Origin: Escherichia coli
GTDB taxonomy: Bacteria > Pseudomonadota > Gammaproteobacteria > Enterobacterales > Enterobacteriaceae
Assembly: GCF_050320075.1 (NCBI RefSeq)
Contig: NZ_CP190018.1
Direction: 5' to 3' (one strand)
DNA length: 64,000 nucleotides
Within the stretch, counting starts at the first letter, position 1. The number at the start of each line of letters is the position of its first letter. Of this stretch, positions 1 to 55,792 are shown piece by piece. The notes beneath the pieces were generated by a model. The model made no database searches, was not told the DNA's origin, and saw only the letters and a program-made list of their open reading frames with translations. A program made the position numbers and the translations under genes.

Positions 1-256
1 ACATTTTTATATCTGTCAGGTTACTTCATTATGAAAACTGATCATCATCGTTGTTTTTGTTGCAATAGTAGAATACGCGTATTTATTCCTCCATCTCTAT
101 TAATAACGGCAATAAACTGTTCACTTCACTGATATTTAAAATATGTATCCTTTTCAAGCTGTTCAGCGGCGTAAGAAAAAGTATTAATTATGAATTCGAT
201 GATTTAACCATATCTGTCTGATTGGTAATCATCCGTGATTAATGCTGGTCTATTGA

Positions 257-1177
257 TTACGCCAGAACCCTCTCTAGCTTATTCACCGCCGCCACATACT
301 TCGCCGGATTTTTATCTTTAAGCACCGCCAGATTGCGTTGCTTCCAGCGAATAGCCGGAAGATGCTGAATTTCAGGATAGCGATACCGCGACCAGTCAGG
401 GCTGTTTTGCTTAAAACTGAGCAAGAACTCGCGATCCAGATCCGTAAGATGTGACTTCAACGCCTGCGGCAGCAAAGTCGTTACTGACAGAAGCGATTCC
501 AGCGACGTTTCCTGTTGCGTCATCCCTGAAAATTCCTGCGCGTACAACGTGGCGATCCGCTCTGTATCCCAGTTTGGAGCCAGCAACTCGGCGATGGGGC
601 GGGGATGGCCTGCCAGATAACAAAGAAAACCGTCAAAGATCTCCCGCATCAGTCCCGGTTTCTCCAGCATATTCAGCACATCAAACAGATCGCGCGGGTG
701 CTGACGATCAAGCGCAGCGCAGATTTTACCGCCATAAAGATCCGCCAGCGAGACGACACTCATGGTGGTGAAGCCATACTCCATTTCCACACGTTCGCAC
801 ACAGGCATTTCTGCCGGAGGCAACAACAGCCCGCGCCAGACCGGGCTAACCTCGATCTTAATCTTTGCATCAGCGGTATTCACAATGATGCGCTTTTCAT
901 CCGCTTTATTTTCCTGCCGAATCGCGGTGATCCCCGGTCTGCCGTTCAGCGATGCAGTAATCCTCTTCAAAGCGTCGTTGATAGCCGCCAAATCAGTATC
1001 GCGATCCGCAAAGCTCTTGTACGCCAGATCAATATCCACCGACAGACGGGGAAAATCCTGCACAAACAAATTGATTGCGGTGCCGCCTTTCAACGCGAAA
1101 CAGGACTCCTTCGCCACATACGGCAGAGCGGCCATCAACAGTTTGACCTGCCGGGCATAGCTATCACGCAGATCCAT
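257..1177 (-). CDS. abiEii: AbiEii-like nucleotidyltransferase toxin (type IV TA / abortive infection)
   Basis: 306-aa ORF; N-terminal 'KGGTAINLF...DIDL' nucleotidyltransferase-type motif typical of AbiEii/DUF1814; 14-nt overlap with upstream partner gene. Confidence 0.65.
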   Translation of the reverse strand: MDLRDSYARQVKLLMAALPYVAKESCFALKGGTAINLFVQDFPRLSVDIDLAYKSFADRDTDLAAINDALKRITASLNGRPGITAIRQENKADEKRIIVNTADAKIKIEVSPVWRGLLLPPAEMPVCERVEMEYGFTTMSVVSLADLYGGKICAALDRQHPRDLFDVLNMLEKPGLMREIFDGFLCYLAGHPRPIAELLAPNWDTERIATLYAQEFSGMTQQETSLESLLSVTTLLPQALKSHLTDLDREFLLSFKQNSPDWSRYRYPEIQHLPAIRWKQRNLAVLKDKNPAKYVAAVNKLERVLA

Positions 1178-1967
1178 CTTCGACTCCTTCCGGTTTAAAT
1201 GCGCGTGGAACAGTAATTTGATAATCCGGCTCCAGCCAGCCGCCGGGTATGATTTGCCGCTTTCCCGTACCTGTTTCTATACCGCTTTGATCAATATACT
1301 GAAAATAAGGGTGTCCATTACGCCGGGCAAGGTAAAGCATCACCCGGTTGGTTTTAACCGAATGGCTGGCGCGAAGCAGTGCCTGCAATTTGCGTGGGCT
1401 GAGAAGATTCAACCCCTGAAACAGAGCATCGGCATGTTCGAACGAGATTAACGAAGGAACGCCGCAGGCGATCTCATACGCGGCCAGTTCCGGAACACTG
1501 CCTGCTAACTGGCGGTCGCCAATTTTCAGTTCCGTAGTAAATGGCGTTACATCAGCGGTAAGGCCTGACGTATACAGCGTGACAAACGTTGCGGATTGTT
1601 CAAAGGCAGAAAACCATCCCGGCAGTTTGACGTAAGCCGGAAGCGCGAGCCAGACCTGCGGCTTACCCTGTTCGGTATAGTGCGCATGACCCTGAAGCGC
1701 AAGGCTGGTTAGCCCCGCCACCCGAACAGGCTTTTCCCACTGCGATTGCAGGCAGTAAACCGCATCCACCCAATCCGGTTCACGACCCGTCCGGCAGTAT
1801 ACGCCGTGAGCGATCCGCCTGAGCCAGCCATTCTTCACATAGAGATAAGAGAGCTTACGATCTATGCCGTTGCGGGTAAGCCATGACTGGAGCAGCACCT
1901 GGCCGGGTAGCGTGTGCTGCATCAGCCAGTTTAGATAGTTTGGCAACTGTCGCCTCTGAATAGACAT
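1164..1967 (-). CDS. abiEi: AbiEi-like antitoxin/transcriptional regulator
   Basis: 267-aa ORF immediately upstream of and overlapping abiEii; size and operon position typical of AbiEi; assignment rests mainly on context. Confidence 0.5.
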   Translation of the reverse strand: MSIQRRQLPNYLNWLMQHTLPGQVLLQSWLTRNGIDRKLSYLYVKNGWLRRIAHGVYCRTGREPDWVDAVYCLQSQWEKPVRVAGLTSLALQGHAHYTEQGKPQVWLALPAYVKLPGWFSAFEQSATFVTLYTSGLTADVTPFTTELKIGDRQLAGSVPELAAYEIACGVPSLISFEHADALFQGLNLLSPRKLQALLRASHSVKTNRVMLYLARRNGHPYFQYIDQSGIETGTGKRQIIPGGWLEPDYQITVPRAFKPEGVEDGSA

Positions 1968-2261
1968 TAGTACAAATATTTAAACCAGTGTAGATTCAGG
2001 GATACGCCACAGCAAGAAATAGTTTACTTATTCCTCATTTTGTCGACTAAAAATCGACATTAAACAAAAAATTCAAACTTAATCACTTTCGGGAAAAATG
2101 TGACAAATATATGCTCGGACTGGTTGCGGGGAGCGTGTAACATGGATACAAATCAAAATTATTGCCAGCCTCACTGATGGATTACTGGTGTCAAGAGCCC
2201 CCCTTCGGGCATGAAACGGCTGGCTAATTCTGTACAGACTGTAATCTAAGGACGATAACGC

Positions 2262-5200
2262 ATGACATATCAGGCAATTTTCACTGGCTGGGATGATCTG
2301 ACGATTGAAGACCTTCTGGTCGCTTACCGGAAAGCAAAAGCCGATAGCTTCTTTGAGAATACATTTCCTGTTGCTATCAAATTTGCCGAGTATGAGCAGG
2401 AATTACTTGAAAACCTGCAAAAACTCTTAGATCTTTTGCAGAGCGAAGATGGATTCAGTAGCAATAAGAAGTTGATTGGCAAATTTCGATTGTTACCGAA
2501 AAAATTAACCACAAAGAAAAAACATGAATCCCAAAATGGACACGTCCACTTTTCTAATCCTAAACGAGCAGCCGACCATTTATTTAATAATTTTGATCTG
2601 ATACCAGAGTTTCGTATTATTGGTGACTTCCCGGTTGATAGTCACATTATCTCTGCACTATGGATTAACATGGTCGGGCATAAATTTGATGCCAGCTTAG
2701 ATAACTGTTGCTATGGCGCGCGGCTAAAGCGTATTCGTAATGATGAATTATTTAGCAATGAGCAGGATAATCCATTCCATATCAGTGCCGTGGGTTCTTT
2801 TAGCCCCTACTTCCAGCCCTACCAAAAATGGCGTGGTGATGGCTTAAAAGCTATACGTGACGAGTTGGAAAAAGATCGTGACATTATCGCCGCCTCACTG
2901 GATTTAAAAAGTTACTATCATTTTATTGATCCACTGGCTATAACCTCTGATGATCTCTATAACACACTAAACATAAAACTGACTGAGGATGAAAAAGCGT
3001 TTACTGCACAGTTAGCAGTATTCTTAAAGCACTGGTCTGACGGCGCAGCGGCATTTGGAAAGAAAATAGCGTACAAAACACCTGTTATTAATGGTGGTCT
3101 GGTCATTGGATTAACAGCCAGTCGGATCATTTCAAATATATTGCTACACCATTGGGATAAATTAGTCATTGAAAAACTATCACCAATTCACTACGGTCGT
3201 TATGTCGATGATATGTTCCTTGTAATACGCGATACAGGGACAATTACTAATAATCACGAATTTATGTTATTGCTGCAAGATAGGCTTGGCAATGATTGCG
3301 TTTATTTGAAAAACGAGCAAAAACAAATATGGCAAATACAGCAGGGCGAGCATTTCCAGGGTAAGACCACCATCCAGTTACAATCCGATAAGCAAAAACT
3401 TTTCGTGCTTCAAGGGAGGGCTGGAATAGACCTGCTCGACAGTATCGAAAAGGAGATCTACGAGCTTTCTAGTGAACACCGCTTGATGCCTTCACCGGAT
3501 CAACTGGAACACTCCACCGCAGCTAAAGTCCTTTCCGCTGCCGGTAGTGTAGGTGAAAATGCCGATACTCTGCGCCGTGCGGATGGATTAACCATTCGTC
3601 GTTTGGGCTGGTCACTGCAATTACGCTACGTTGAAACACTGGCACGAGATCTGCCTCCAAGTGAATGGAAAGAACAGCGGGAAGAGTTTTATCAGTTTGC
3701 CTACAACCATATTCTTAGGGCTGATAATCTATTTGCACATTTTAGTTATCTGCCAAGGCTGCTTGGCTTTGCTATCAGTATGAATGAATGGCAGCACGCG
3801 GAAAAAATTGTACTTAAAGCTTACGAATCCATCAACCTGTTGGCATCGGTGATTACTTCAGGTAAGGAAGTGAATATAAATGGTTGCAAAACTCGAGCAG
3901 TAAATGATCTTTGGCGCTGTATAAAAGGCACATTAAGCTGGCTATTTGTTGATGCAGCGACACGATATTACAGTCCTGACAGATTATTTCTTGATAAACG
4001 TTCAAAGAAAGAAGAGTGCCTTGCGGATACATTTTTTAATCATATTTCACAAAGTCTGACGAATCTAAAGGATTTACTGGATCTTCGCTTTGATTCAGCA
4101 GATTTTTATTTAAAAGCGCCATTGGTAGCTCGAGCTGATTTAGCAAAGGAACCTTATAAACAGATCGTAAAGAGTCAGTCGGCAGAAAAACTTGTTAATC
4201 AGCGTGATAGTAAAAAAGAAGTTAAAATACTGAAATTAATGAGCGACTCATCGCTTATTGATATTGACGTTATTAAGCTATTTTTGAAATCAACCAAGAA
4301 TACCCGACTGGAAAAAGTGGCTAAAGGAAATCGTAAGAACGAAAGTTACCTACCTTACATTTTCCCTACACGTCCTTTAACACCCGCTGAAATATCAGAA
4401 CTGGCCCCCGAATGTGTTGGATTACCCTCCACATCCGACAAAAAACCAGATGAGAGACCGTCCACCATTTGGGCAAAATATACTCAAGCATTACGCGGAG
4501 TATGGATCAAACCGACGTTGCTAGCATCGGAGCAGGACTCAGATGAAGCGACAAAAAAAGCTCGGCCTAAGAAATTCATTCATATTGGCACAGACAGGAA
4601 ACATAAAGTTGTCGTTGCGCTAACCAGCATTAAAACAGAGGAGGACGACTGGGCTAAAATGGCCTGCAATAAATCTAACTTGTCCCGTTCAAGGTACCAG
4701 CGGATTTCTGAACTGGTTAATGCAACATTGAAACTATCTCCTAAACCTGATTATGTTTTATTCCCTGAGCTTTCAATCCCGTTACGCTGGGTTAACAGTA
4801 TTGCTGATCGTTTGAGTTCGGCGGGTATCAGTCTAATTGCGGGAACAGAATACCGCCACTTAGACGATAATCAACTGAAGAGTGAGGCCGTACTTGTCCT
4901 TTCAGATAACAGACTCGGCTATCCAGCGAGTGTCAAAATATGGCAACCCAAGCTGGAACCCGCCGTAGGTGAAGATGAGGCATTATTTTCAATTTATGGT
5001 AAGTCTTGGGATTCGACACTTAATGTTAAACAACGTAAGCCGGTATATATTCATCACGGCGTCAATTTTGGCGTTATGATTTGCTCTGAACTCCAGAATA
5101 GTAAAGCGAGGATCCGTTTTCAGGGCGCACTCGATGCATTAATGGTATTGAGCTGGAATAAAGATCTAGATACGTTTGCATCGTTGATTGAATCAGCAGC

Positions 5201-5471
5201 GCTGGATATTCATGCCTATACTATTTTAGTGAATAACCGAAAATACGGCGATAGTCGCGTACGTTCCCCGGCAAAAGAACCCTTTATGCGTGATATTGCT
5301 CGTGTGAAGGGCGGTGATAATGACTTTGTGGTCGCTGCAACGCTGGATATCGACTCGTTAAGGGCATTTCAGAGCAGGGCAAAACGCTGGCCTAAAGGCG
5401 GCGATAAATTCAAACCGTTACCTGAAGGATTCCAGTTGGCAAAGAACCGCAAAAAGCTACCGCCAAAATAA
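2262..5471 (+). CDS. Reverse transcriptase-nitrilase fusion protein (defence-associated RT, DRT type 1 / UG1-like)
   Basis: 1069-aa ORF; RT motifs A 'SLDLKSYYHF' (aa ~211-220), B 'NGGLVIGLTASRIISNILL' (aa ~277-295), C 'YVDD' (aa 314-317, nt 3201-3212); C-terminal carbon-nitrogen hydrolase signature 'FPELSIP' (E836) and 'GVMICSE' (C941); divergent from AbiE pair. Confidence 0.7.
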   Translation: MTYQAIFTGWDDLTIEDLLVAYRKAKADSFFENTFPVAIKFAEYEQELLENLQKLLDLLQSEDGFSSNKKLIGKFRLLPKKLTTKKKHESQNGHVHFSNPKRAADHLFNNFDLIPEFRIIGDFPVDSHIISALWINMVGHKFDASLDNCCYGARLKRIRNDELFSNEQDNPFHISAVGSFSPYFQPYQKWRGDGLKAIRDELEKDRDIIAASLDLKSYYHFIDPLAITSDDLYNTLNIKLTEDEKAFTAQLAVFLKHWSDGAAAFGKKIAYKTPVINGGLVIGLTASRIISNILLHHWDKLVIEKLSPIHYGRYVDDMFLVIRDTGTITNNHEFMLLLQDRLGNDCVYLKNEQKQIWQIQQGEHFQGKTTIQLQSDKQKLFVLQGRAGIDLLDSIEKEIYELSSEHRLMPSPDQLEHSTAAKVLSAAGSVGENADTLRRADGLTIRRLGWSLQLRYVETLARDLPPSEWKEQREEFYQFAYNHILRADNLFAHFSYLPRLLGFAISMNEWQHAEKIVLKAYESINLLASVITSGKEVNINGCKTRAVNDLWRCIKGTLSWLFVDAATRYYSPDRLFLDKRSKKEECLADTFFNHISQSLTNLKDLLDLRFDSADFYLKAPLVARADLAKEPYKQIVKSQSAEKLVNQRDSKKEVKILKLMSDSSLIDIDVIKLFLKSTKNTRLEKVAKGNRKNESYLPYIFPTRPLTPAEISELAPECVGLPSTSDKKPDERPSTIWAKYTQALRGVWIKPTLLASEQDSDEATKKARPKKFIHIGTDRKHKVVVALTSIKTEEDDWAKMACNKSNLSRSRYQRISELVNATLKLSPKPDYVLFPELSIPLRWVNSIADRLSSAGISLIAGTEYRHLDDNQLKSEAVLVLSDNRLGYPASVKIWQPKLEPAVGEDEALFSIYGKSWDSTLNVKQRKPVYIHHGVNFGVMICSELQNSKARIRFQGALDALMVLSWNKDLDTFASLIESAALDIHAYTILVNNRKYGDSRVRSPAKEPFMRDIARVKGGDNDFVVAATLDIDSLRAFQSRAKRWPKGGDKFKPLPEGFQLAKNRKKLPPK

Positions 5472-5633
5472 GAAACTGATTTTCGCTATTAATAATCAGG
5501 GTATTTTTGCGTGAGATGTTGGTAAACATGATGTAGCCCTTGCCACTCATGACCAATCGCAGTATCTTTCTCCCGCGCCTGCAAAATCAGGCGTCGGGAT
5601 TAGCCTCCTGAAGAAATCTTATCGGCGACACAT

Positions 5634-5654
5634 GACGCGCCAGCGTCTTTTTTT
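5634..5654 (+). terminator. Rho-independent terminator downstream of RT-nitrilase gene
   Basis: Hairpin gacgc-gcca-gcgtc followed by a run of 7 T. Confidence 0.5.
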
Positions 5655-5817
5655 GTGTTGTTCGCACGGTTACATCTCAATGGTGGGCCGGGCGGGGGCG
5701 TCGCAAGACGCGCCAGTGTCCGATAAGGCTGGTAAGGCTAACCCTGCCCGGTTCCACCACCCGCGAGATTAGCCTCTCCGGTGGTGGCTTGAACACCCAC
5801 TTATCGGAGGTTGCCCT

Positions 5818-6288
5818 ATGGCTACAATCCTCACCACTGACAGCGATTTACTCGATCTATTGACCGTCCCCTTCAATGCCACCACGGATTTCACTGTCCT
5901 TGCTGACTACTGCGCCCGCTTTGCCGAAACCCTGATTGAAACCGACGATCCAGCGCTACGACTGGCGCTCTGCGGGCGGCTTCACGCGGCTCTTGCGCTA
6001 CTGCAACCCACACTACACGACCCCATCCCACCGCATCTTACCGAAAGCCTGACCGTGGATACCCTTCCCGCCACACCAGAGCACTTTATTTCCGAACCTG
6101 ATTCCTTGTGCGAATACTGCCTCGCACTACTCCAGCTTCTGCTGGAACGTCCGGCGGAACCAAAAATGGAGCAAACCCTGACCGGGCTGCTGTGTGAGCT
6201 GGTCTGGTATTTCACGGAAGGACTCAAAGCCCCACGCTGGCTGCGTACCGCCGACGGCGTAAAATTTATCAGCGAGGTGGCCGCATGA
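5818..6288 (+). CDS. Hypothetical protein (156 aa), no family recognised
   Basis: Clean ORF preceded by GGAGG-like SD; Leu/Ala/Thr-rich acidic protein; preceded by a GC-rich repeat-structured leader. Confidence 0.4.
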
Positions 6289-6425
6289 TGCAACAGGACT
6301 GGCATTCCGCCGACATTATTGCGGTGCTGAAAAAGCGGGGAACGCCTCTGGCGGCACAGAGAAAAACTCATTGCGGAAGCGCTGTAAATATCGCCAGAAA
6401 TCATCTGGCCTTCAAGGTACTTTGA
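6285..6425 (+). pseudogene. Ner/Nlp-like HTH regulator, N-terminal fragment
   Basis: ATGA-coupled to previous ORF; first ~24 aa '[24 protein letters not shown]' match Ner/Nlp family N-terminus, then diverges and terminates after 46 aa. Confidence 0.35.
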
Positions 6426-6637
6426 TAGCAAAGGCAAGCAGGCTGGTTCAGTCCAGTGTTTCTCTTCTTGCATTTTCAGAAATGGGAGGCTGGGAGTCTA
6501 TCGAAATGGTTCGTCGATATGCTCACCTCGCGCCTAATCACCTTACCGAACACGCACGGCAAATAGACTCAGTCCTGAACCCATCGGTCCCAAATTTGTC
6601 CCAGTCAAAAAATAAGGAAGGTACTAATGATGTGTAA
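6371..6637 (+). pseudogene. Tyrosine integrase 3' fragment (C-terminal catalytic-Tyr region only)
   Basis: Translation '[31 protein letters not shown]' parallels the C-terminus of the intact lambdoid integrase at 54542-55702 ('[31 protein letters not shown]'); no N-terminal or core domains present. Confidence 0.6.
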
Positions 6638-6667
6638 CTTATTGATTTTAATGGTGCGATAAGAGGA
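6638..6667. repeat. Degenerate att-like sequence (relic of tRNA-Thr 3' end junction)
   Basis: 'cttattgattttaatggtgcgataagagga' vs 'ctacttgatttaaatggtgccgataatagga' at the int-tRNA junction 55703-55733; ~85% identity, same position relative to integrase stop. Confidence 0.5.
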
Positions 6668-6789
6668 ATGAATATTGCAAGTTAACGCATTGATTTATAA
6701 TAGATTATTATATTCAAAAAATATAACTATACACATATCTATACACACTGCGCGCATCGCTTGTTTTTCGCACAATTAAAAATAAGAAA

Positions 6790-7092
6790 AAAGTTTTTTT
6801 TCGAAAGAACTGTTCACACTGTTCACCTTTCTGTTTTCTCCTTTTATTTCAGTTTGATAGGTGGTGAATAATGGGTGAATGGTGAACATTCGATTCTTCA
6901 CCTCCGGCATTCTGCCGGTGTGACTCATACCGGTGATTAATCCCCCGTACTGAAATCACACAGGGAGAAAAAAAGTTTTTTTTGATTTGATTGTTCACAC
7001 TGTTCACCTTTCATTTTTCTCTTTTAATTTCAGTGTGATAACGGGTGAATATACGGTGAAGGGTGAACAGTGGATTGTTCACCTTCGGGGAA
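6790..7092. repeat. P4 crr-like cis replication region: two ~120-bp direct repeats with TGTTCACC/GGTGAACA octamers
   Basis: Unit 1 ~6790-6900 and unit 2 ~6970-7092 share 'aaagtttttttt...ttgttcacactgttcaccttt...ttcagt(t/g)tgata...gggtgaa...ggtgaaca'; octamer is the P4 alpha-binding iteron. Confidence 0.65.
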
Positions 7093-7100
7093 TTCAGGGA

Positions 7101-7126
7101 TAAAAAAAGACCGGCAGATGCCGGTC
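7101..7126 (-). terminator. Rho-independent terminator after alpha
   Basis: Hairpin gaccggca-gatg-ccggtc followed by T-run on minus strand, just downstream of alpha stop. Confidence 0.6.
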
Positions 7127-7142
7127 AGATGAGTCATGATGG

Positions 7143-9476
7143 TCAGGTTGTTGCAGGGTCGTCACATTTTGGCAGCCAGTCGCCGTAGCTTTCCTCTTTC
7201 AGCGTCAGGTTGGTCTGTATCCCCTGTTTGGTATGGCGCTTCTCGTAATTCAGTCCGTATTCCTTCAGCATCACCGGCAGCCCCAGCCCGAACATTTTCA
7301 GACTGAGTACATTCCGGTAGCCGTTTGCCTCCATGTAGGCCAGATAGGCGTGATAGAGGTATTTACGGTAATTACGCGGGATGATACTGGCGTTCCCCAT
7401 ATACATGCCGCTGGTCTGCGGCAGGGTTTCCAGATAGCCGATAAAATCAAACGTCGGGTCGGCATCCCGTTTGATGTTCAGCGCCTCGTCTGAGTTCTGC
7501 TGGGACTGAAGCAGTGACCGGGCGAGCATCGGGTCGCTGAACTTCTGCATCAGGTGACGCACGATGACCGCCAGCTCGCGGGTGATTTTGTCCTTAAGCT
7601 GCGGGTCGCGCTCCTGCGGGGCTATCTGTTCCGGGAAGTGAATAATCACCCGCCGGCGTGACACGCCGCCGCTGCGGTCGGTGAAGCGCATCGGGTTATT
7701 GTTCACGGCCAGAATTACCGCCGGGATATGCGTGGAGTATGCATCCCGGTATTTCGGGTCAACGGACACCGCATCGCCGCCGGTGATGGCCTTGAGTCCG
7801 GCACCGTCGCCGCTCCATTTTTCCTGGTCCGGCAGGCGTATCAGTGAGAAGCCAGTTAACGCGGCACGTTCACGCGGGGATTCCAGCGTCTCGATGGTGG
7901 CCGACGTGGCGTTATCCTCCCCGGCCAGCAGGGTGGCTATTTCGGCCATGATACTTTTGCCGCTGCCGCCGGGACCGGTCACCTCCAGAAAGAGCTGCCA
8001 GTCGTAGCGGTTTGCCAGCACCATAAACAGTGCGGCCAGAATCACGTCGCGTTTTTCCGCACGGCCACCGGCGGCACGGTCAAGCCAGCGCCAGAACGCG
8101 GGGGCGTGGGTCTCCAGCGTTTCACCGTCCACCGGCGGGGTGAAATCCACATCGCACAGGGTGCGCATCCAGTGTGACGGACTGTGCGGGTGGAACGTGC
8201 CGTTCTGCGTGTCGAGCACGCCGTTACGAAAGCCAATCAGGCGGCGGGAGGGGGCTTCCTGCTGCGGAATAATCAGCTTCAGGGTGTCCACCACGGAGGC
8301 CACCTTCCCGGAGGAGAACGGCGCGCGCAGACGCTGAAACAGCCCGGCCACATCCCGGGCAAAGTCCTGTGGTGGCAGCACCTTCCAGACACCATTTTCA
8401 TAACGGGACAGAAGCTGGCCGTTGGCATCGACCGCGAGCGCCTCGCCGTAATGCTCATAGATACGCATGGCCTTTTCGCTGGTACTCATGGCGGAAAACT
8501 CCGCTTCGCTCATGGTGTCGAACGGGCTTTCAGCCGGTGGCCGGATGGCATCATAAATGGCCTTACGGGTGGCTTCCCCGCCGTACTGCGTGAAGGCATC
8601 ATTCCAGTCACCGAAGACCGGCGGCAGGGCAACAACGCCCTCACACGCATCTGCGGCTGCGGCGGCTTTTTTCTGGCCGTCACCGCTGAGGTCACGGTCT
8701 GCGGCAAGGACAATCTGACAGGCCGGATGCTTCTGCCGGGCAAGGCTGGCCAGAGAAAGGAGGTTCACGGAAGAAAGCGCCACCATCACCGTTTCACCGG
8801 TCAGGTGATGTACGGTAAGTGCGGTCGCGTATCCCTCCGCTATCCACAGACGTTTTCCGGCCTGATTCTGTCCTTCAAGGGTGTGACAGGTGCCCCTGAC
8901 CTGTCCGCCTTTCAGGGTGCGCTTACGGCCGTCAGCACTGATTAACTGAAGGTTAACCAGTTCGCCGCTGTCGTCATACAGTGGCACCACAAGGTCACCG
9001 GCACGCCAGCTCACGCCACCGGCTCTGTGTGTGCCGGTCAGCATCCGGCATTCCCGGCCGGGAAAGCCCTTGCGGGTCAGGTAGGCGTTACCGGTTCCGG
9101 GACGGGTTTTCGCCATCAGGGTTTGTGCCAGTGCGGCGGCGTTCTTCCGGGCAGCGTCTGTTTCAGCACCGGCGGCAGCCGTCACTGCCGGGTCAGCCGG
9201 GGGCAGGCTGCCGGTCACGGCAGCCACCTTTGCTGCCGCGTCGGACGGGGAAACACCAAACACCTTTTCAACCAGTTTCAGGCCGTCACCGGCACCACAC
9301 TGATTGCAGTACCAGGTGCCGCGCCCCTCCCTGTCATCAAAACGGAAGCGGTCACTCCCGCCACAGACCGGACAGGGCTGATGACGGTTTTTCAGCACCT
9401 GAATCCCCAGCGCCGGGAGAATACGCGGCCAGTGGCCGAGCGCATGGCTGACGGTGGCGGTTACGTTCATTTTCAT
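7143..9476 (-). CDS. P4 alpha-type primase/helicase replication protein
   Basis: 777 aa; N-terminal zinc-binding 'CPVCGG...CNQCG' primase region; Walker A 'GPGGSGKS'. Confidence 0.85.
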   Translation of the reverse strand: MKMNVTATVSHALGHWPRILPALGIQVLKNRHQPCPVCGGSDRFRFDDREGRGTWYCNQCGAGDGLKLVEKVFGVSPSDAAAKVAAVTGSLPPADPAVTAAAGAETDAARKNAAALAQTLMAKTRPGTGNAYLTRKGFPGRECRMLTGTHRAGGVSWRAGDLVVPLYDDSGELVNLQLISADGRKRTLKGGQVRGTCHTLEGQNQAGKRLWIAEGYATALTVHHLTGETVMVALSSVNLLSLASLARQKHPACQIVLAADRDLSGDGQKKAAAAADACEGVVALPPVFGDWNDAFTQYGGEATRKAIYDAIRPPAESPFDTMSEAEFSAMSTSEKAMRIYEHYGEALAVDANGQLLSRYENGVWKVLPPQDFARDVAGLFQRLRAPFSSGKVASVVDTLKLIIPQQEAPSRRLIGFRNGVLDTQNGTFHPHSPSHWMRTLCDVDFTPPVDGETLETHAPAFWRWLDRAAGGRAEKRDVILAALFMVLANRYDWQLFLEVTGPGGSGKSIMAEIATLLAGEDNATSATIETLESPRERAALTGFSLIRLPDQEKWSGDGAGLKAITGGDAVSVDPKYRDAYSTHIPAVILAVNNNPMRFTDRSGGVSRRRVIIHFPEQIAPQERDPQLKDKITRELAVIVRHLMQKFSDPMLARSLLQSQQNSDEALNIKRDADPTFDFIGYLETLPQTSGMYMGNASIIPRNYRKYLYHAYLAYMEANGYRNVLSLKMFGLGLPVMLKEYGLNYEKRHTKQGIQTNLTLKEESYGDWLPKCDDPATT

Positions 9477-9490
9477 GGTGTTGTTCTCCT

Positions 9491-9811
9491 TCAGTGCAGT
9501 ACCGGCGCTTTTATGTGACGGGCACAGAGTTCATCCATCACAACCAGCCCGAGAAAGGACAGCGACGGCGCGGCCTTCAGGGGGCCGGATTCCATTAAAT
9601 CTTCCAGCAGGGCACAGGCTATCTGACGCCCTTTTTCCTCACCGTGCTGGCGCAGATAAAAGCCTTCCAGCTCAGCGGCGATGGCCGCCTCCAGTGATTC
9701 AAGGGTGAGATGCGGGTAGCGGTGCTGACGTTCGCACACGGTCAGCCAGGCACAGGCGACAGCGCGACGGTAAAGGGCTGCGCGTAAGACGGGCGGTAAG
9801 GGTGTTTTCAT
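9491..9811 (-). CDS. P4 orf106-like hypothetical protein
   Basis: 106-aa ORF between alpha and orf151-like gene, matching P4 gene order and size. Confidence 0.5.
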
Positions 9812-54665: not shown

Positions 54666-55702
54666 AAGCAGAAGCGTGGAGAGTAAAAAATCTCGGGGAA
54701 TCACCGAAAAAGCTATTCAAGGAAGCCTGCATACGGTGGCTGCGTGAGAAATCGGATAAGAAGTCCATTGATGATGACAAGAGCATTATATCGTTCTGGA
54801 TGTTGCACTTCAGAGAAGCCATTCTCTCTGACATAACAACAGAAAAAATAATGGAGGCGGTAGATGGGATGGAAAACCGCCGCCATCGCCTGAACTGGGA
54901 GATGAGCCGGGACAGGTGTTTGCGACTTGGCAATCCGGTGCCGGAGTATAAACCAAAGCTTGCAAGCAAAGGAACGAAGACGAGGCATCTGGCAATACTT
55001 CGCGCCATTCTCAATATGGCTGTTGAATGGGGATGGCTTGACAGGGCACCCAAAATATCAACACCACGCGTTAAGAATGGACGCATCAGATGGCTTACAG
55101 AGGAGGAATCGAAGCGCCTGTTTGCAGAAATTGCTCCTCACTTCTTCCCTGTGGTCATGTTTGCAATCACGACAGGCCTTCGCCGTTCCAACGTTACAGA
55201 CCTTGAGTGGTCACAGGTCGATCTGGATAAGAAAATGGCATGGATACACCCTGATGAAACAAAAGCTGGCAATGCGATCGGAGTTCCTCTTAACGAAACC
55301 GCATGCCAGATATTAAGAAAACAGCAGGGGCTCCATAAGAGATGGGTATTTGTCCACACCAAACCTGCCTACCGAAGCGACGGAACAAAAACAGCAGCGG
55401 TAAGGAAGATGAGAACCGACAGCAACAAGGCATGGAAGGGAGCGTTAAAGCGGGCAGGCATTAGTAACTTCCGCTTCCATGATCTGAGGCATACCTGGGC
55501 AAGCTGGCTGGTTCAGTCCGGTGTCTCTCTTCTTGCACTTAAAGAGATGGGAGGATGGGAAACTCTCGAAATGGTTCAAAGATACGCCCACCTTTCAGCC
55601 GGGCATCTCACCGAGCACGCAAGCAAAATCGATGCGATTATAAGTCGCAATGGCACAAATACGGCACAAGAGGAGAACGTGGTGTATTTAAATATGGGGT
55701 AA
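54542..55702 (+). CDS. int: Lambdoid tyrosine integrase
   Basis: 386 aa; catalytic 'HDLRHT' and 'RYAHL' motifs; stop 14 bp from att core. Confidence 0.85.
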   Translation: MSIKLRGGTWHCDFVAPDGSRVRRSLETSDKRQAQELHDRLKAEAWRVKNLGESPKKLFKEACIRWLREKSDKKSIDDDKSIISFWMLHFREAILSDITTEKIMEAVDGMENRRHRLNWEMSRDRCLRLGNPVPEYKPKLASKGTKTRHLAILRAILNMAVEWGWLDRAPKISTPRVKNGRIRWLTEEESKRLFAEIAPHFFPVVMFAITTGLRRSNVTDLEWSQVDLDKKMAWIHPDETKAGNAIGVPLNETACQILRKQQGLHKRWVFVHTKPAYRSDGTKTAAVRKMRTDSNKAWKGALKRAGISNFRFHDLRHTWASWLVQSGVSLLALKEMGGWETLEMVQRYAHLSAGHLTEHASKIDAIISRNGTNTAQEENVVYLNMG

Positions 55703-55715
55703 CTACTTGATTTAA

Positions 55716-55762
55716 ATGGTGCCGATAATAGGAGTCGAACCTACGACCTTCGCATTACGAAT
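55716..55762. repeat. attL core: 47-bp identical to 16849-16895 (within tRNA-Thr 3' half)
   Basis: Exact 47-bp direct repeat. Confidence 0.85.
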
Positions 55763-55792
55763 GCGCTGCTCTACCAACTGAGCTATATCGGC
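55717..55792 (-). tRNA. thrW: tRNA-Thr
   Basis: Reverse complement reads 'GCCGATATAGCTCAGTTGGTAGAGCAGCGCATTCGTAATGCGAAGGTCGTAGGTTCGACTCCTATTATCGGCACCA' with CGT anticodon context. Confidence 0.85.

Follow-up and report, generated by a model that had tools for sequence, protein, structure and literature searches.

A GC-rich segment full of direct and inverted repeats lies between two genes of the window, the whole 64-kb stretch of Escherichia coli DNA that was analysed, and raises the question of which of these genes it serves and by what means. The upstream gene encodes a 1069-aa reverse transcriptase (RT), and the downstream one is an open reading frame (ORF) of 156 aa. The first-pass annotation had called the upstream gene an RT-nitrilase, and rightly so: PADLOC assigns the protein to RT_UG5-nitrilase in a full-length match (1034.5 bits), and Pfam has no match for it. 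For the segment itself, that annotation had preferred a structured RNA or a recombination site to a simple promoter, and had raised a template RNA for the RT as a lead. The repeat blocks that it listed are all present in the sequence and in the output of a repeat finder, with start positions off by 0-5 nt. GATTAGCCTC occurs at 5598-5607 and 5767-5776, and a direct repeat (CGGGATTAGCCTC / CGAGATTAGCCTC) starts at 5595 and 5764. CTTATCGG is found at 5618-5625 and 5800-5807, with its perfect complement CCGATAAG at 5720-5727, while AGGCTAACC(C) at 5735-5744 has its complement, GGATTAGCCT, at 5597-5606. GACGCGCCAG(C/T)GTC is present at 5634-5647 and 5707-5720. The long-range stem (GGTGGGCCGGGC...GCCCGGTTCCACC, 5682-5760) is also real.

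RF01394 and RF01695 are Rfam families built around the immunity regions of P1/P7 (c4) and of satellite P4 (CI RNA and seqA leader). In this study, the Rfam covariance models were run on the 64-kb window at their curated gathering thresholds. The isrK model (RF01394) matched full-length at 5575-5653 with 68.8 bits against a threshold of 50 (E = 1.3e-12), and the C4 antisense RNA model (RF01695) matched at 5676-5764 with 71.1 bits against a threshold of 45, over model positions 1-87. The Rfam model for the a1, b1 targets of C4 (c4-a1b1) reached 43.8 bits at 5562-5614, slightly below its threshold of 46.7. It is highly probable that the repeat-rich segment is an antisense-RNA immunity module of the P4 CI / P1 c4 type, made of an isrK/seqA leader and a C4/CI RNA, and that it belongs to the downstream 156-aa gene and not to the upstream RT. 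A module of this kind is an already catalogued phage-type regulatory RNA and is nothing new as a feature. Its most likely role is to silence the downstream 156-aa gene. The parts of the module, and the genes and remnants that follow it, are these:

5540-5568, plus strand: sigma-70-type promoter-like site (TTGCCA, 17-nt spacer, TATCTT), predicted start at ~5575
5575-5653, plus strand: leader of the isrK / P4 seqA type (RF01394 match)
5575-5594, plus strand: leader stem-loop 1, from the isrK model alignment
5595-5610, plus strand: a1 hairpin, displaying box a1 at 5600-5606
5618-5625, plus strand: box b1, single-stranded in the leader
5634-5647 with a T-run to 5654, plus strand: intrinsic terminator (GACGC-GCCA-GCGTC plus T7), equivalent to P4 t1
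5676-5764, plus strand: C4 / CI-type antisense RNA (RF01695), outer stem 5681-5759 around two hairpins
5720-5727, plus strand: box b', in the loop of C4 hairpin 2
5735-5741, plus strand: box a', in a single-stranded joiner of C4
5767-5810, plus strand: downstream target region with boxes a2 and b2, supported by inverted repeats I2 and I6
5769-5775, plus strand: box a2, in the loop of a possible hairpin with arms 5754-5767 / 5774-5787 (inverted repeat I2)
5800-5807, plus strand: box b2, overlapping the GGAGG Shine-Dalgarno sequence (5806-5810) of the 156-aa ORF
5818-6288, plus strand: 156-aa ORF of an uncharacterised Enterobacterales family, the proposed first gene regulated by the module
6285-6425, plus strand: truncated, frameshifted Ner/SfsB-like HTH gene, the second operon gene in intact islands (RefSeq: frameshifted partial HTH)
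6434-6637: C-terminal fragment of a P22-type integrase, after the Ner-like gene
~6642-6672: degenerate tRNA-Thr 3' end, after the integrase fragment

The site at 5540-5568 is the sole promoter-like match in 5300-6700, and its predicted start at ~5575 coincides with the beginning of the isrK model. Its position is equivalent to that of P_LE in P4, and its -10 element aligns with those of P4 and 25 other loci, with T45, A46 and T50 invariant or nearly so. Both a promoter-like site directly upstream and a terminator as the 3' end are therefore present for membership in the isrK/seqA leader family. The first-pass annotation had taken the hairpin at 5634-5654 for the terminator of the RT gene. This assignment has to be changed, since the hairpin and its T-run come 163 nt after the RT stop and are preceded by a separate promoter-like site. 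The hairpin is the leader terminator of the module, forming the 3' end of the isrK/seqA model as the equivalent of P4 t1.

The minimum-energy fold of C4 agrees with the Rfam family consensus, which has a long outer stem and two internal hairpins. The 83-nt core folds at -51.1 kcal/mol (z = -4.46 against dinucleotide shuffles), its long stem being the outer stem, and the 256-nt region folds with z = -5.1 against shuffles of the same kind. Downstream of C4, the GGAGG at 5806-5810 stands 7 nt before the ATG at 5818, and the GGAG right after b2 is invariant in an alignment of 27 loci. A 24-nt direct repeat (5624-5647 / 5697-5720, 83%) is also real; it links the terminator to the C4 hairpins and is absent from the P4-like copies, and we treated it as lineage-specific.

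Within the window, the 7-nt a and 8-nt b box matches are perfect. A search of the 64 kb for the composite TTAGCCT-N(5-30)-CTTATCGG gave exactly three matches, two on the plus strand (the targets) and one on the minus strand (the antisense copy), against 0 expected from 100 shuffles. Both boxes appeared together in 2 of 200,000 trials when the upstream flank was shuffled, and in 4 of 200,000 when the downstream flank was shuffled. These results demonstrate that the box arrangement is far beyond chance.

The window carries a second copy of the module (copy B) on the minus strand, with C4 at 10927-11014 (86.1 bits) and isrK at 11077-11154 (73.4 bits), and it aligns end to end with the copy described above (copy A). 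A scan of IMG/VR with the 5' arm of the C4 stem, which is conserved, gave 104 stretches, many of them on contigs of ~11-14 kb, the size of P4. Together with the window copies, these yielded 94 unique regions of 380 nt. In nearly all of them a1 equals a2 and both are the reverse complement of a', and b1 equals b2 and both are the reverse complement of b'. The six boxes occur in 25 combinations, built from at least seven a-types and at least eight b-types that are freely combined. The combination in the window, TTAGCCT / CTTATCGG, is unique among the 94 regions.

Covariation was measured on the 27-locus alignment, which holds one representative per combination, P4 (NC_001609) and three island relatives. 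The representatives were selected for distinct boxes, so that variation is inflated in the following values and pairing is not:

Boxes a1/b1 with a'/b': 99.5% of cells paired; 12 of 15 pairs changed on both sides; score 0.772 (shuffle 0.206; slid at most 0.152)
Boxes a2/b2 with a'/b': 99.5% of cells paired; 12 of 15 pairs changed on both sides; score 0.767 (shuffle 0.203; slid at most 0.133)
Local stems: 95.2% of cells paired; 13 of 46 pairs changed on both sides; score 0.191 (shuffle 0.109; slid at most 0.101)

Shuffles gave 6.4 local-stem pairs changed on both sides and slid controls no more than 2, as against the 13 observed. Compensatory changes were found in leader stem 1 and in the terminator stem. 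The first-pass annotation had suggested RNA folding with covariation analysis as a check on its proposal. The fold matches the consensus, and the box pairs are 99.5% paired over the 27 loci. With two Rfam models above their thresholds and with stems and box pairings that covary, the expectation of a structured RNA rather than a simple promoter was borne out.

We also calculated the duplexes that C4 would form with the two sets of targets in the window. On its own targets, C4 of copy A gave -28.7 and -28.4 kcal/mol, compared with -13.6 and -21.6 kcal/mol on the targets of copy B. The best explanation is that the box sequences set immunity specificity and that copy A is heteroimmune to the C4 of the P4-like satellite. 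For the two copies in the window, heteroimmunity is derived from this difference between cognate and non-cognate duplex energies. The boxes, which covary three ways, also offer a clean and large natural test set, in which the antisense and target pairs are orthogonal.

How the RNA is processed, its effects on termination and translation, and the biological part that the module plays are all drawn here from P4 and P1 genetics. The leader would be transcribed constitutively from the promoter at 5540-5568, and a C4 RNA of ~80 nt (~5681-5762) would be excised from the leader transcript. RNase P cuts the 5' end of the C4/CI RNA in P4 and P1. The exposed boxes b' (CCGAUAAG) and a' (AGGCUAA) may then pair with a1/b1 on the nascent leader, which would favour termination at 5634-5654 and result in autoregulation and a short isrK-like RNA. 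The same C4 boxes may also pair with a2/b2 and so block translation of the 156-aa ORF, because b2 overlaps its GGAGG ribosome-binding site (RBS). Polarity would then silence the remaining operon, which in intact islands continues with the Ner-like HTH gene and then a same-strand EFASI RNA and Integrase_1.

An earlier paper states that the CI RNA of P4 arises by processing of a transcript that is not translated, and that it brings about premature termination by pairing with seqA upstream and seqC downstream (PMC4825925). IsrK was described there as a structural homologue of P4 seqA, with a stable RNA downstream of it (PMC4825925). In Salmonella Gifsy-1, the short IsrK activates downstream translation and does not repress it (PMC4825925), so the sign of the regulation is not guaranteed by family membership. 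In addition, since the operon is truncated in the window (the Ner-like gene is frameshifted and Integrase_1 is missing), the 156-aa ORF may be all that the switch still controls, or the switch may partly be a relic.

The 156-aa protein has 646 homologues across Enterobacterales. It has no match in Pfam, NCBIfam, PHROGs or PADLOC, and a profile search of PDB sequences found no relative. An AF2 model built from a 34-sequence alignment (pLDDT 85.2, pTM 0.80) predicts a four-helix bundle with a C-terminal beta-hairpin, and the only neighbours that Foldseek retrieved for this model from PDB and BFVD are generic four-helix bundles with E of 0.025 or worse. We also considered kinship with the 63-65-aa first ORF after C4 in P4-like satellites, and the two proteins are unrelated. 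In the P4-like copy of the window, that 63-65-aa ORF is annotated by RefSeq as 'icd-like'.

To which gene the module belongs can be read from the loci in which it occurs. Outside the clone of the window, isrK and C4 lie directly upstream of the 156-aa homologue in all ten loci scanned (L002, L003, L112, L119, L120 and L122-L126; 59-94% identity in protein alignment A4). In the seven with 59-71%-identical homologues (E. coli, Dickeya, Klebsiella), they end ~53 nt before the ATG, and the same is true of L002, L003 and L112. HTH_35 genes follow orf153 in L112, L119-L120 and L122-L126, and the intact Ner-like homologue in L003 matches SfsB at 9.3e-34, below NCBIfam's own equivalog cut-off. The cargo upstream of the module differs by locus, being AAA_23 with PAAR/DUF2169, DarT-Macro with a type I restriction-modification (R-M) system, AbiE with DUF4747, or RHS. 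In E. coli AR_0055, the place of the RT in the same thrW island is taken by hsdR-hsdM-hsdS, which AbiEii/AbiEi precede and the module and the 156-aa gene follow. In the class of E. coli matches with 88.9% identity, homology starts at ~5539, just before the -35 element, and homology to the AR_0055 island starts at ~5539 as well. These results indicate that the module is part of a conserved backbone of isrK-C4, orf153/156, HTH_35 (Ner/SfsB-like), EFASI RNA, Integrase_1, P4-type integrase and tRNA, that the RT occupies a variable cargo slot upstream of this backbone, and that the module stands beside the RT by an accident of island architecture.

The same loci bear on the lead that the element is a noncoding RNA (ncRNA) partner of the UG5 RT-nitrilase, serving as template, primer or scaffold as in retrons and class 2 DRTs. 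We consider this very improbable. The element lies ~100 nt past the RT stop codon on the same strand, no intrinsic terminator was found between them so that read-through is possible, and C4 has a tRNA-like acceptor stem. In L112, the locus of the closest RT homologue (82% identical), the RT is likewise followed by isrK and C4. However, L112 is another island of the same backbone, and it shares no RT-proximal flank with the window: the RT 3' flanks are homologous only from the module onwards (window ~5554), and their spacers differ. Homologues of the RT with 69-82% identity occur widely across Gammaproteobacteria, and among the ten RT-homologue loci scanned (L108-L117), isrK/C4 was absent from the other nine, which have RTs of 69-76% identity (Citrobacter, Yersinia, Salmonella, Vibrio, Kluyvera and metagenomes). 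The RT-proximal spacer 5472-5545 gave only chance matches when BLASTed against the RT-homologue loci, and no RT relatives turned up when IMG/VR was scanned with a peptide pattern. Within E. coli, the stretch that carries the module (5480-6300) is present in 1063 genomes, compared with 260 complete genomes for the RT, all but one of these at >=99% identity, so that the RT carriers are effectively one clone of the island. The presence of hsdRMS in the RT slot of AR_0055 before the same module, and the promoter-like site that the element has of its own, also argue against a partnership with the RT. It has been reported that a UG5-large system has no flanking ncRNA by RNA-seq and tolerates deletion of its upstream region (bioRxiv 10.64898/2025.12.16.694600), and that the class 3 enzyme DRT1 carries out template-free, protein-primed synthesis (PMC13275509). 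The element is essentially not conserved beside homologous RT genes, and the template lead for UG5 RT-nitrilase is closed at this locus, in agreement with class 3 RTs working without one.

Three other readings do not involve the RT. RefSeq annotates a CDS at 5608-5772 as 'ash family protein' (Pfam PF10554), and another over the second copy, and gene callers sometimes extend the 156-aa gene upstream into products that match PF10554. That the region encodes such a small protein is nevertheless hardly credible. Stop codons are few in this GC-rich region, which is free of them in several frames, so an open ash frame says little. The translation of 5608-5772 in the annotated frame has no NCBIfam match, the variable columns (14/27, 19/27 and 17/29 by codon position) have no third-position excess, and 1-nt indels occur within C4 between close relatives. 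The variation is instead compensatory across the RNA stems and the three box sets, and the P4 immunity factor is an RNA from an untranslated transcript (PMC4825925). Labelling both C4 RNAs of the window as 'ash family protein' CDSs is a recurrent mis-annotation. The recombination site that the first-pass annotation had proposed as an alternative is also highly unlikely and found no support. In this reading, the repeats would mark a recombination or attachment site where defence cargo is exchanged. The boundary between variable cargo and conserved backbone does lie just upstream of the element, at ~5539, with the RT here, hsdRMS in AR_0055, and T6SS/RHS, DarTG or DUF4747 elsewhere. However, the repeats are within the conserved backbone and not at the junction, RNA-RNA complementarity with three-way covariation accounts for them fully, and a recombinase-type core or arm layout is not evident. 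For the exchange of cargo, homologous recombination may be an equally good explanation, with AbiE and C4-orf156 as the shared flanks. More weight is due to the possibility that the module is C4-type by descent and a functionless relic here, its RNA perhaps made and nothing of consequence regulated, although we still regard this as unlikely. The Ner-like gene is frameshifted and truncated, and EFASI, Integrase_1 and the P4-type integrase have given way to a fragment of a P22-type integrase and the degenerate end of a tRNA-Thr. Against this, the promoter-like site, six boxes, stems, RBS and full 156-aa ORF are all intact, and the 821-bp stretch 5480-6300 is found at >=99% in 257 E. coli records, which are clonal and so are not strong evidence of selection.

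The C4-type switch may not be confined to satellites and phages. We tentatively suggest, as a reading somewhat short of an even chance, that it is the conserved regulator in a family of tRNA-integrated Enterobacterales islands that has yet to be described, the upstream slot being a cargo hotspot, orf156 a derepression or activation factor, and the boxes what defines heteroimmune lineages. The backbone of this family would comprise isrK-C4, orf153/156, the Ner-like HTH gene, EFASI RNA, Integrase_1 and the P4-type integrase. If this is true, the slot before the C4 promoter swaps cargo such as the UG5 RT, type I R-M, AbiE, DarTG, DUF4747 and T6SS PAAR/RHS, the combinations of a and b boxes define many mutually heteroimmune island lineages, and the four-helix-bundle 156-aa protein is the island's own derepression or activation factor. 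For studies of defence islands, the promoter of the C4 module is a landmark, since it marks where the variable defence-cargo slot ends on the right in islands of this type.

Among known systems, the retron msr/msd and the ncRNAs of the class 2 UG/Abi systems DRT2 and DRT9 resemble the window in that a structured RNA lies beside a same-strand defence RT. They differ in that the element of the window is present in only one of ten RT loci, has an independent promoter-like site and belongs to a different, well-defined RNA family. The RT of the window is moreover a class 3 (UG5) enzyme, a class reported to be template-free or without an ncRNA. In the case of Salmonella Gifsy-1 (IsrK, orf45 and anrP, with STnc1160), the leader in the window matches the same isrK model, RF01394. 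However, the short IsrK of Gifsy-1 activates translation of orf45-anrP in trans, whereas P4/P1-type repression is assumed for the window, and the downstream genes differ. Related modules in Stx and Salmonella phages sit at annotated antirepressor or regulatory-protein genes.

The immunity region of P4 (P_LE, seqA, CI RNA with seqB, and seqC) has the same order of parts as the module. The window aligns end to end with P4 8720-8380, through the -10 element, stem-loop 1, the a1 hairpin, b1, the t1-type terminator, the C4/CI fold, a2, and b2 with its GGAG. Compared with P4, the boxes of the module differ (heteroimmune), and its spacer between terminator and C4 is shorter. The genes downstream are also different: P4 has the icd-like / epsilon / orf151 / orf106 / alpha operon, whereas copy A is followed by the 156-aa protein and the Ner-like HTH. 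AbiE and the RT precede copy A, and orf156 and the Ner-like remnant follow it, with HTH_35, EFASI and Integrase_1 in intact relatives. The host island of copy A is without alpha, sid, delta and psu and does not count as a P4-like satellite. The P4-like gene set belongs to the separate element of copy B (~6673-16685), in which the module heads an operon of icd-like, epsilon ('Derepression'), orf151, orf106 (DUF5375) and a 777-aa alpha primase.

In P1, c4 is an antisense RNA that pairs with a1/b1 and a2/b2 and thereby controls icd-ant. The immI region of P1/P7 (c4, a1/b1 and a2/b2, icd-ant) belongs to the same family (RF01695) and clan as the C4 of the window. The genes proposed to be regulated in the window are unrelated to icd and ant, and the c4-a1b1 score is 43.8 against 46.7. 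The two systems share one logic, in which a' and b' pair with one set of targets upstream and another downstream, and b2 lies over the ribosome-binding site of the ORF that comes first.

We found that E. coli YZLc1-3 (NZ_CP123240.1) matches window positions 1-55792. The exact window junction was present in only one complete E. coli genome. Across this same stretch, the tRNA-Thr gene thrW bears a stack of three elements, which are as follows, with the cargo gene of the second on its own line.

1-6670: element 1, an island remnant in which AbiE and the RT are followed by the C4 module (leader and C4 antisense RNA)
about 6673-16685: element 2, a complete P4-like satellite; it contains crr repeats and alpha, has a C4 of its own, and also carries sid/delta/psu, a cargo gene with a HEPN domain, and an integrase
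14123-15508: the HEPN-domain cargo gene of the P4-like satellite
about 17-55.7 kb: element 3, a P22-like prophage ending at the tRNA (55717-55792)

The end of element 1 was compared with the prophage end (6434-6672 versus 55500-55722). Behind the truncated Ner-like gene lies the C-terminal part of an integrase, which was 86% identical to the thrW-adjacent sequence at 55500-55577. After it, still within 6434-6672, the tRNA-Thr 3' end is repeated in degenerate form, which is a scar left by an earlier P22-type integration.

In the close UG5 RT-nitrilase homologues of the window RT (2262-5471), which are 69-76% identical to it (among loci L108-L117), partner genes were almost always found upstream, in two sets.

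Set 1: hsdM and hsdS, then genes for a KwaA-like protein of 184 aa and a 277-aa protein, the latter stopping 13 nt short of the RT
Set 2: a gene for an SMC_N/AAA_15 ATPase of 582-588 aa, with its stop codon overlapping the start of the RT

The RT of locus L112 (82% identical) has hsdRMS alone upstream, without either partner type. The window RT also lacks such a partner and is divergent from AbiEi. The missing partner genes may be relevant to whether the RT functions alone.

In intact islands that share the backbone of this one (L003, L110-L112, L119-L120 and L124-L126), EFASI RNA (RF02957, 99-119 bits) precedes a 293-294-aa Integrase_1/Phage_int_SAM_2 gene by 43-94 nt. In the Salmonella loci L110 and L111, the order after the RT is an 84-aa ORF, EFASI and Integrase_1, and both C4 and orf153, the relatives' counterpart of the 156-aa ORF, are absent.

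Modules 68-75% identical to window 5584-5830 were present in 217 phage records of the phage collection (matches H26-H55). Most of these phages infect Escherichia or Salmonella, Stx-converting phages among them, and the genes that the matches overlap bear the annotation antirepressor, transcriptional regulator or regulatory protein. The same C4-type switch is therefore in wide use beyond P1 and P4.

Both C4 antisense RNAs of the window carry a RefSeq CDS named 'ash family protein' (5608-5772 and 10897-11229). With some gene callers the 156-aa ORF begins farther upstream and runs through C4; the resulting products are 193-215 aa long, and most of them have a PF10554 match.

In the island remnant, a 24-nt direct repeat, 83% identical (5624-5647 and 5697-5720), connects the leader terminator with hairpins 1 and 2 of C4. 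The equivalent segments of the P4-like copies show no such mutual similarity. Beside the alpha gene is a pair of 123-nt direct repeats, 181 nt apart and 80% identical (6785-7088), matching the crr layout of P4, in which two 120-bp repeats are 180 bp apart.
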